DNA of 1,160 nucleotides from Escherichia coli (GTDB taxonomy: Bacteria; Pseudomonadota; Gammaproteobacteria; Enterobacterales; Enterobacteriaceae): the NCBI RefSeq assembly GCF_003334335.1, contig NZ_QOWQ01000119.1; one strand, 5' to 3'. Positions 202-1,074 of this stretch are shown piece by piece (within the stretch, counting starts at the first letter, position 1; every line of letters starts with the position of its first letter). The notes under the pieces were generated by a model. The model worked only from the letters and a program-made list of their open reading frames with translations, was not told the DNA's origin and did no database searches. Made by a program: the position numbers and the translations under genes.

Positions 202-500
202 GGGTGAGAGTCTATATCGCCGGTCCAATGACCGGGTATAAAAATTTCAACCGTGAGGCGTTTCACAATGCGGAAGAGGTACTGAAACGGGAAGGGCATA
301 CCGTTTTAAACCCGGCAGTACTTCCGGACGGGCTGACTCAACCACACTACATGGATATTTGCATGGCAATGCTCCGTTGCGTGGATGCGGTTTACATGCT
401 GAAAGGCTGGCAGCAGTCGGCAGGTGCAAGGGCTGAGCTGGCACTGGCGGAGAAACTGGGCCATGCGGTGATTTTTCAGGAGGTGGGCAGTGAATATTGA
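198..500 (+). CDS. DUF4406 family protein (nucleoside 2-deoxyribosyltransferase-like fold), 100 aa, GTG start
   Basis: The N-terminus MRVRVYIAGPMTG...NFNREAF...GHTVLNP matches the signature I associate with DUF4406 / NDT-like small phage proteins (beta-strand, then a glycine-rich AGPMTG loop, then an aromatic FN..AF motif). The ORF is complete with a strong SD upstream, and the family normally begins right at the YIAGPMTG motif, which supports GTG 198 over the internal ATG at 228. Confidence 0.85.
   Translation: MRVRVYIAGPMTGYKNFNREAFHNAEEVLKREGHTVLNPAVLPDGLTQPHYMDICMAMLRCVDAVYMLKGWQQSAGARAELALAEKLGHAVIFQEVGSEY
478..483 (+). promoter_or_regulatory. Shine-Dalgarno (AGGAGG) for the small membrane-protein gene, embedded in the 3' end of the DUF4406-like gene
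   Basis: AGGAGG at 478..483 lies 6 nt upstream of the GTG at 490. Confidence 0.6.
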
Positions 501-729
501 CCCGGCGATAACGATTGATATGGCCCTGAACACCGGCCTGGCACTTCTTGGTTATTTCTACATCATGTTCTGCAGCGGACGATGGCTGTCACTGTTGTTC
601 ATGAAAAAATGGAATAAACGCCGTAAGCAGGAGCAACGCCAGAAGGCAATGGATGCATTTTCGAAGCCTTCGGAATTGACGGCATGGAACCAGGGGATCC
701 AGCTCGCGCAATCAGCAGAGGGGGTGTAG
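490..729 (+). CDS. Small predicted membrane protein, 79 aa: one hydrophobic helix followed by a polybasic segment; function unknown
   Basis: The ORF starts at GTG 490 with AGGAGG 6 nt upstream and overlaps the previous gene by 11 nt (previous stop 498..500); an in-frame ATG at 520 is an alternative start. Residues ~12-37 (ALNTGLALLGYFYIMFCSGRWLSLLF) are hydrophobic, immediately followed by KKWNKRRKQEQRQK, consistent with an N-out/C-in single-pass topology by the positive-inside rule. It ends in a tandem stop, TAG 727..729 then TAA 730..732. No family recognised. Confidence 0.6.
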   Translation: MNIDPAITIDMALNTGLALLGYFYIMFCSGRWLSLLFMKKWNKRRKQEQRQKAMDAFSKPSELTAWNQGIQLAQSAEGV

Positions 730-759: not shown

Positions 760-1074
760 ATGACGATCACAAAACAACGAGTAGAAAAAATCATATATCG
801 CCATGAAATGGGACTGAACAGCGATGTCACTGCCGAAGAGGTTTATGACCTGGCTGTACTGGCGCTGAATTTATCAAATATCGCAAACCTGAAGCGATAC
901 GAGCTTGATATGGATGGTTGCGACTCGTGCGGTCAGGATTGTGGCGCAGATATGACTGAAGATCCTGATGGTGATTATGTCCTGTTTGATGACGTGGTTA
1001 AGTTGTTTGAATTTGATACAACCACTCAAAAGTTAGAAATCCCGGCAAAGGAGGCAGCCAGTGAGCAAGATTGA
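760..1074 (+). CDS. Hypothetical small acidic protein, 104 aa, with a C-x2-C-x3-C cluster; function unknown
   Basis: ATG at 760 is preceded by a purine-rich stretch (GGAG 745..748, GAAGAG 750..755), and the ORF runs to TGA 1072..1074. By hand count it has about 24 Asp/Glu against 9 Lys/Arg. Cysteines sit at residues 54, 57 and 61 (nt 919..942). The track's TTG 736 start has no SD and is less likely. Confidence 0.7.
   Translation: MTITKQRVEKIIYRHEMGLNSDVTAEEVYDLAVLALNLSNIANLKRYELDMDGCDSCGQDCGADMTEDPDGDYVLFDDVVKLFEFDTTTQKLEIPAKEAASEQD
1046..1052 (+). promoter_or_regulatory. Shine-Dalgarno (AAGGAGG) for the downstream partial gene, embedded in the 3' end of the acidic-protein gene
   Basis: AAGGAGG at 1046..1052 lies 8 nt upstream of the GTG at 1061. 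Confidence 0.7.

Follow-up and report, generated by a model that had tools for sequence, protein, structure and literature searches.

A probable recent frameshift allele of a DUF4752 gene, encoding a predicted membrane-anchored phage early protein, in a lambdoid prophage of Escherichia coli

The window, by which we mean the whole 1,160-nt stretch of DNA analysed here, is 100% identical to positions 3371777-3372936 (minus strand) of the Escherichia coli NCTC9112 chromosome (NZ_LR134079.1), where it sits within a lambdoid prophage. Replication genes (DUF1376/DnaT-like and lambda-P-like) lie 5' of the window in this prophage, and Ea22-like, DUF551, hokD, DUF968, RusA, and Q-like genes lie 3' of it. 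In the RefSeq annotation a DUF977 gene ends at position 201 of the window and is followed on the plus strand by a 100-aa DUF4406 / nucleoside 2-deoxyribosyltransferase-like gene (198-500), by a pseudogene described as a frameshifted DUF4752 family protein (520-806), and by a gene for a 104-aa hypothetical protein (760-1074) that matches PHROG 3126, a profile of unknown function; an ead/Ea22-like gene starts at 1061. Promoter, terminator, and Rfam scans of the window returned nothing above shuffled expectation. The DUF4406 protein matches only positions 73-175 of the 249-position PHROG 355 profile (nucleoside 2-deoxyribosyltransferase) and is a minimal version of that fold; the DUF4406 protein of phage D6 is 203 aa long.

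Two other parts of the NCTC9112 prophage deserve mention. Three more RefSeq pseudogene fragments, one frameshifted hypothetical protein and two DUF551 pieces, lie at positions 9611-11040 of the extended locus (L001), 1.6-3.0 kb downstream of the window start. Another gene caller finds ORFs of 171 aa and 305 aa there, and the fragments may reflect decay of the prophage or over-calling by PGAP. Positions 2495-4266 of the same locus carry dicB, an adjoining DUF1482 gene, and a RelE/ParE-RelB toxin-antitoxin pair, with hokD further downstream; the prophage thus already holds several small toxic or division-inhibiting genes that are unrelated to the ORF discussed below.

What is encoded at positions 490-729? 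This plus-strand ORF specifies 79 aa from a GTG start (490-492) that is preceded, at a distance of 6 nt, by the Shine-Dalgarno sequence AGGAGGT (478-484), and it overlaps the DUF4406 gene, whose TGA stop occupies 498-500, by 11 nt. A short acidic N-tail (residues 1-11) leads into a 26-residue hydrophobic stretch, ALNTGLALLGYFYIMFCSGRWLSLLF (residues 12-37, nt 523-600), in which Arg31 is the single charged residue. Directly after this segment comes KKWNKRRKQEQRQK, and residues 38-52 (nt 601-645), MKKWNKRRKQEQRQK, make up a polybasic juxtamembrane stretch with eight Lys or Arg residues and one Glu. An earlier note had described this geometry, from the GTG start and strong Shine-Dalgarno sequence to the hydrophobic and then basic stretches, and all of it can be read back from the DNA. 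The same note supposed that the ORF is of a kind often missed by annotation, which does not apply here: RefSeq records a frameshifted DUF4752 family protein and GenBank a 79-aa hypothetical protein. It also took the 79-aa ORF for the gene itself, and on this point we part company with it, as the ORF is a frameshift allele without the most constrained part of the protein.

The frameshift lies in a short T-run at positions 658-661. In a DNA alignment this run is TTTT in the window and in JE86-ST05 and TTTTT in E. coli O111 8D, in OkiPb01717, and in orf78 of VT2-Sakai. Given this single missing T, residues 1-57 (nt 490-660) are authentic, whereas residues 58-79, SKPSELTAWNQGIQLAQSAEGV, are a 22-codon tail read out of frame (661-729, with the stop TAG at 727-729). 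The intact genes in the alignment encode proteins of 94-105 aa that continue as ...QKAMDAF-FEAFGIDGMEPGDPARAISRGGVVILVYRSEEKN..., and intact relatives of the window gene in general are about 85-105 aa long. In the window, the authentic C-terminus, FEAFGIDGMEPGDPARAISRGGVVILVYRSEEKN..., is found in another frame, the third forward (codon starts at positions divisible by 3), and runs to 806; it can be followed on the plus strand as (F)EAFGIDGMEPGDPARAISRGGVVILVYRSEEKN... from 660 to the stop TGA at 804-806, which by alignment covers the helix and beta-hairpin module of the family, and the ORF at 684-806, MEPGDPARAISRGGVVILVYRSEEKN..., is a remnant of it.

Profile searches place the gene in a catalogued family. 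The protein restored by re-inserting the missing T matches Pfam DUF4752 (PF15944) over model positions 1-84 of 84 (E=4.4e-39) and PHROG 667, a family of unknown function, over positions 1-93 of 94 (E=1.7e-41), that is, over the full length of both profiles. The window ORF itself matches the DUF4752/PHROG 667 family profile with E=5.3e-26; its alignment to PHROG 667 spans residues 1-71, of which only 1-57 are authentic. An intact frame through the C-terminal module (..EPG..R....G..VI..YR.E) is absent from the window, and the locus is a disrupted member of the family. We conclude, with a probability of roughly 85%, that the window holds a recently frameshifted DUF4752 gene. The family was already known as PF15944 and PHROG 667, and the locus was already a RefSeq pseudogene.

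The window contains other homopolymer runs besides the T-run at 658-661, namely an A6 run at 604-609 and a G run at 721-724. Public databases hold several other independent homopolymer frameshift variants of the gene (P0018, P0019, P0046, P0050, P0054, and P0056, as well as the IMG/VR locus L080); P0056 fuses DUF4406 to DUF4752, and P0001 and P0046 carry a second, compensating shift. Many of these database variants may be read or assembly errors. We considered whether recurrent inactivation of DUF4752 might hint at toxicity and rejected the idea: only one of 80 IMG/VR loci (L080) is frameshifted, so there is no convincing excess of inactivation.

The pattern of substitution among intact alleles shows which parts of the gene are constrained. 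Fifteen distinct intact alleles, taken from 80 IMG/VR loci and from the reference loci, give a pooled Nei-Gojobori pN/pS of 0.30 in the annotated frame versus 1.1-1.4 in the two other frames; since the alleles recombine and the pairs compared share phylogenetic history, this and the following ratios are indicative and are not formal tests. Over the hydrophobic region pN/pS is 0.24 in the gene's own frame versus 1.3-1.6 in the others. Residues 58-92 show the strongest constraint in the protein (pN/pS 0.16). The frame that the window ORF enters past the deletion gives a value of 3.8 in the intact alleles, and hence no constraint. The direction of these differences is unambiguous: as far as substitution patterns can tell, no part of the protein is under tighter constraint than the C-terminus that the window allele has lost, and the 22 residues in its place do not come from a coding frame. 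The coding character that the earlier note ascribed to the ORF accordingly holds over the authentic part, which is under purifying selection in its own frame.

The start codon can be assigned in the same manner. Position 11, where ATG 520 would initiate, is Thr in all other allele types and Met only in the window lineage, so that ATG 520 is lineage-specific. GTG 490 is the conserved start, a GTG or ATG being found at this position in 16 of 16 allele types (86 loci), and a GAGGTG-type motif also precedes the start in other GTG-start alleles. The choice between GTG 490 and ATG 520 that the earlier note had posed is thereby settled in favour of the former.

How common is the deletion, and how did it arise? 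A search with a 40-mer centred on the T4 run found the T4 allele in five of 5,426 complete E. coli genomes (NCTC9112, JE86-ST02, JE86-ST05, UCPROB-001, and UCPROB-002). The intact T5 run is present in at least 395 of the same genomes, a lower bound because the 41-mer search required an exact 28-mer. The exact 79-aa product is recorded on 264 public contigs drawn from NCBI, ENA, Logan, and JGI sources, and a position index has 581 blocks with it, the prophages concerned having different immunity and Q modules. The DNA of all ten carriers examined is one identical 317-nt sequence, and over positions 490-759 the missing T and one substitution are all that separates the T4 allele from the nearest intact one. 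The identity among carriers and the near-identity to an intact allele point to a single, recent mutational event. These comparisons suggest that the deletion has since been inherited, carried along in a DUF4406 / DUF4752 / PHROG-3126 / Ea22 module, and that the window allele is most likely a recent loss-of-function allele, or pseudogene, hitch-hiking in a conserved prophage module.

The family to which the intact gene belongs appears strongly restricted to phages. A profile search of 1.84 billion cluster representatives (50% identity) recovered only 61 DUF4752 proteins at E<=1e-3. By tblastn against phage genomes, members were found in Stx-converting phages, in P22-like phages (BTP1, L, ST64T, and ST104), in HK97-like phages (mEp213, mEp043, and HK106), in the P1-like phage D6, and in Klebsiella, Hafnia, and Erwinia phages. 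In an alignment of 37 full-length members with identities down to ~20%, the anchor, the basic cluster, and the C-terminal module are co-linear. The order of motifs is a short N-tail; a hydrophobic helix of the G(L/I)xxxG(Y/W) type; Lys or Arg followed by a near-invariant Trp (W32); the basic cluster; a helix, QKAxNxFxxAF; and a hairpin, (E)PG...R/K..T.G..VI..YR.E. A53 is, like W32, near-invariant across the 37 homologues.

Is the hydrophobic segment a membrane anchor? In the window protein it scores KD19 = 1.41 against a classical cut-off of 1.6, with a Hessa 19-residue sum of +2.7 kcal, and more hydrophobic 19-mers (KD19 up to 2.14) exist in non-coding frames of the window; hydrophobic composition alone therefore proves nothing. 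Judged by its conserved position and character across the 37 homologues, and by purifying selection in its own frame only, the segment is real. On these simple scales the window protein is borderline for membrane insertion, and only 17 of 28 relatives have a KD19 of at least 1.6. The N-flanks of the family are acidic (0-1 Lys/Arg versus 1-2 Asp/Glu) and the C-flanks basic. The window protein follows this pattern, with no Lys/Arg and two Asp/Glu in its N-flank and eight Lys/Arg and one Asp/Glu in its C-flank, a charge distribution that agrees with the positive-inside rule, according to which the basic flank stays on the cytoplasmic side. The flank charges, together with an architecture that stays co-linear down to ~20% identity, support the prediction that intact DUF4752 is a bitopic inner-membrane protein with its N-terminus outside and its C-terminus inside.

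AlphaFold2 models the protein as a single long helix (residues 5-61, pLDDT ~90 over the hydrophobic part) followed by a beta-hairpin (residues 72-84, with strands at 72-75 and 81-84); the C-terminal module has a pLDDT of only ~57-61, which is low confidence, and the deeper alignment of 37 sequences gave a confidence there no higher than a shallow alignment did. The layout of the intact family is thus a short acidic N-tail, a helix of ~20-26 residues, a polybasic juxtamembrane segment, and a C-terminal helix and beta-hairpin of ~35 residues. The description first proposed for the ORF, a small protein in which a polybasic stretch comes after an N-terminal hydrophobic helix, is borne out by alignment, pN/pS, and structure prediction for the family as a whole.

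The conserved core ends near residue 88-92. The intact DUF4752 frame extends 47 nt into the downstream gene, whose ATG at 760 lies inside it, and the alleles diverge right after AAAAATGA (window 760-806; alignment from column 286). From this coincidence it follows that the tail past ..EEKN is the 5' end of the following gene, read in another frame, and position 760, judged from the allele alignment, is a module junction at a gene start. The C-terminal module also occurs without the hydrophobic helix in three proteins (P0088, P0104, and P0106), of which P0088 joins it to an N-terminus of the Ead/Ea22 type (Pfam Ead_Ea22 E=1.5e-10, DUF4752 E=1.1e-17). As each of the three comes from one contig only, they may not be real, and we do not use them to argue that the domain is autonomous. 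Finally, we rejected as relatives the long proteins P0070, P0105, and P0116, which match the module 3 to 13 times; they are TPR-like, cystatin-like, or other repeat proteins that gather weak matches. For example, P0070 is a 1,194-aa protein of 13 near-identical ~90-aa repeats with a cystatin-like QIVNG motif; its E=3.8e-16 against the DUF4752 profile is a sum of weak matches to the hairpin region, which we judge to be a repeat artefact.

The DUF4752 gene always lies among small early accessory genes, either in the pR cluster (P to ninB) or in the pL cluster (exo-xis or beyond att). In the window prophage it is found between the replication gene P and the Ea22-like/hok/DUF968/RusA/Q genes; here, as for BTP1_045 and in phiEt88, the position is between P or a helicase gene and ninB. 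The member mEp213_029 lies in the exo-xis/ea region, the SPN1S member follows the replication genes, the VT2-Sakai member lies beyond att, and that of D6 is in an accessory block; PhiR46_1 likewise carries its copy in an early accessory cluster. The gene that overlaps the DUF4752 start from upstream varies: it is DUF4406 in 19 loci, a MarR-like wHTH gene in 41, a gene for a 73-aa Zn-finger protein in 15, and LygF in one, and in 57 of the 77 classified related loci it is something other than DUF4406. In every classified locus the end of the upstream gene and the start of DUF4752 share 1-11 nt. The overlap on which the earlier note based co-expression with the DUF4406 protein thus stands, but a specific coupling does not; since the upstream gene varies, DUF4752 has no specific functional tie to DUF4406, which is a neighbour in the window and not a conserved partner. 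As read from gene order, the overlap reflects how tightly phage operons are packed and perhaps also a coupling of translation. With upstream and downstream neighbours varying between phages, we also abandoned an attempt to assign a function by guilt by association.

Which characterised systems does DUF4752 resemble? VT2-Sakai orf78, BTP1_045, ST104 ORF7, ST64T Orf-90, SPN1S_0050, and phage D6 orf94 are direct homologues of the restored window protein. They share its start, its order of anchor, basic stretch, and helix-hairpin, and its place in the early clusters of temperate enterobacterial phages; the window copy differs from them by the 1-nt deletion and the loss of the C-terminal module. 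A full-text search with the family and member identifiers found no paper on, and no known function for, any member, and a paper on the exo-xis region of Phi24B (PMC10789677) says nothing on the DUF4752 gene.

The earlier note had likened the ORF to Kil-like division inhibitors, superinfection-exclusion factors, and membrane toxins. Among Pfam families DUF4752 is the sole match for the protein, with no SieA/SieB/Imm-type, HOK_GEF, Kil, or DicB family found, and NCBIfam and PADLOC (the latter at E<=0.1) gave no match for the window ORF, for the restored protein, or for either neighbour. BLASTP against DicB of the same prophage yielded only E=3.7 over four residues and against its DUF1482 protein nothing. 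A sequence-profile search of the PDB remained at chance level (the top match, cytochrome c oxidase subunit 6C, which is a single-pass helix, had E=0.28), and Foldseek found nothing in the PDB for the AlphaFold2 model at E<=0.001. The proposed likenesses therefore lack sequence, profile, or structural support and are best regarded as unsupported analogies.

The lambda/Rac Kil, DicB, and DUF1482 proteins are, like DUF4752, small proteins from early or accessory gene regions in lambdoid prophages. DicB is soluble and works by way of MinC, and the DUF1482 protein adjoining dicB is presumably of the YdfD family; both genes are present in the same prophage as the window, without detectable similarity to DUF4752. 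The Hok/Gef type I toxins are likewise small and prophage-borne, with a hydrophobic helix at the N-terminus, and the prophage of the window has hokD 2.7 kb further downstream. However, the flank charges of DUF4752 suggest the opposite topology, it has an additional conserved C-terminal module, and no antisense RNA or mok-like arrangement was found at the locus, Rfam being empty for the window. The closest mechanistic analogy, in topology only, may be to proteins of the Pf3 coat type, which are small N-out/C-in single-span proteins with a short acidic N-tail and no signal peptide. DUF4752 resembles them in the acidic N-tail, the lack of a signal peptide, the single hydrophobic helix, and the basic, predictedly cytoplasmic segment that follows it; it differs in having no sequence relationship to them, in being an early-operon accessory and not a virion component, and in its extra C-terminal module.

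Could the gene nevertheless yield a full-length protein? The missing T might be a homopolymer error of sequencing or assembly, the gene being intact in vivo, and NCTC9112 is presumably a long-read assembly (of the NCTC 3000 project), in which homopolymer indels are typical. Yet five complete genomes from three strain-name series (NCTC9112; JE86-ST02/ST05; UCPROB-001/002) carry this allele, and its exact product, found on 264 contigs from several sources, cannot be the outcome of an assembly error; we regard this explanation as extremely unlikely. Alternatively, the frameshift could be corrected during expression, by -1 ribosomal frameshifting or by transcriptional slippage on the T-run, to give a low and possibly regulated amount of full-length protein. 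A -1 shift at TTT 658-660 would restore exactly ...DAFFEAF..., and other database alleles are also frameshifted at homopolymer runs. Against this, GCA TTT TCG does not fit the canonical X XXY YYZ pattern of a slippery heptamer, the four T of the run fall far short of the roughly 7-9 residues that appreciable transcriptional slippage takes, Rfam shows neither a frameshift element nor another RNA family in the window at E<=1, and the in-frame T5 is kept in at least 395 genomes. Such correction seems to us very improbable.

A different question is whether the 79-aa product is itself a functional truncated variant, in which the transmembrane and polybasic part is active, perturbing the membrane or inhibiting division, and the C-terminal module is dispensable or regulatory. 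The breadth of its distribution over contigs, index blocks, and prophages with different flanking modules is what such a variant would show, and the start, the Shine-Dalgarno sequence, and the N-terminal 57 residues are untouched. That the examined carriers share one identical DNA, however, speaks for a young allele spread by descent and linkage, with no sign of maintenance; the part that was lost is the most constrained of the protein; the allele is rare; and the protein has no homology to the Kil, DicB, Hok, or Sie families. We consider a functional variant improbable, and the anchor and basic stretch of the 79-aa allele may yet retain some activity or have acquired an altered one.

We propose, then, that window positions 490-729 are the 5' part of a DUF4752 early accessory gene of a lambdoid prophage, broken by a 1-nt deletion in a T5 run. 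In the intact protein, the short acidic N-tail would cross the inner membrane without a signal peptide, as in Pf3-coat-type proteins, and the C-terminal helix-hairpin module would be kept on the cytoplasmic side of the membrane, in a position to bind a partner from host or phage while the early lytic genes are transcribed. To judge from the pattern of conservation, the intact family most likely consists of membrane-anchored early proteins that act through this conserved cytoplasmic module. The likeliest specific activity would be to recruit or sequester such a partner at the inner side of the membrane in early development, though as a particular claim we hold it to be doubtful; the partner-binding role of the module is conjecture, as the protein has no structural or sequence relative of known function. 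The window allele keeps the anchor and the basic stretch and has the C-terminal module swapped for 22 unrelated residues, which makes it most likely a loss-of-function allele, one most likely devoid of any partner-recruiting activity. A bolder version of this proposal is that DUF4752 represents an uncharacterised class of membrane-tethered early effectors that capture a host factor, and that the T4 allele is a selected 'anchor-only' variant and not a neutral pseudogene, one that would escape or modify the effector activity, for instance by relieving a cost to the lysogen; we see this as a long shot.

The finding is an ordinary one that will not surprise phage specialists. It does carry a lesson for annotation: a clean small ORF with a good Shine-Dalgarno sequence and the look of a transmembrane protein with a polybasic tail turned out to be the front of a frameshifted gene, and for this reason its C-terminal third should not be interpreted. 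Beyond this lesson, DUF4752 emerges as a compact, conserved, and tractable family of predicted phage early membrane proteins. The natural T4 truncation provides a ready-made allele for comparison with intact DUF4752, and a conserved membrane-tethered early protein of this kind would be a reasonable candidate for a role in host take-over or in the modulation of lysogeny.
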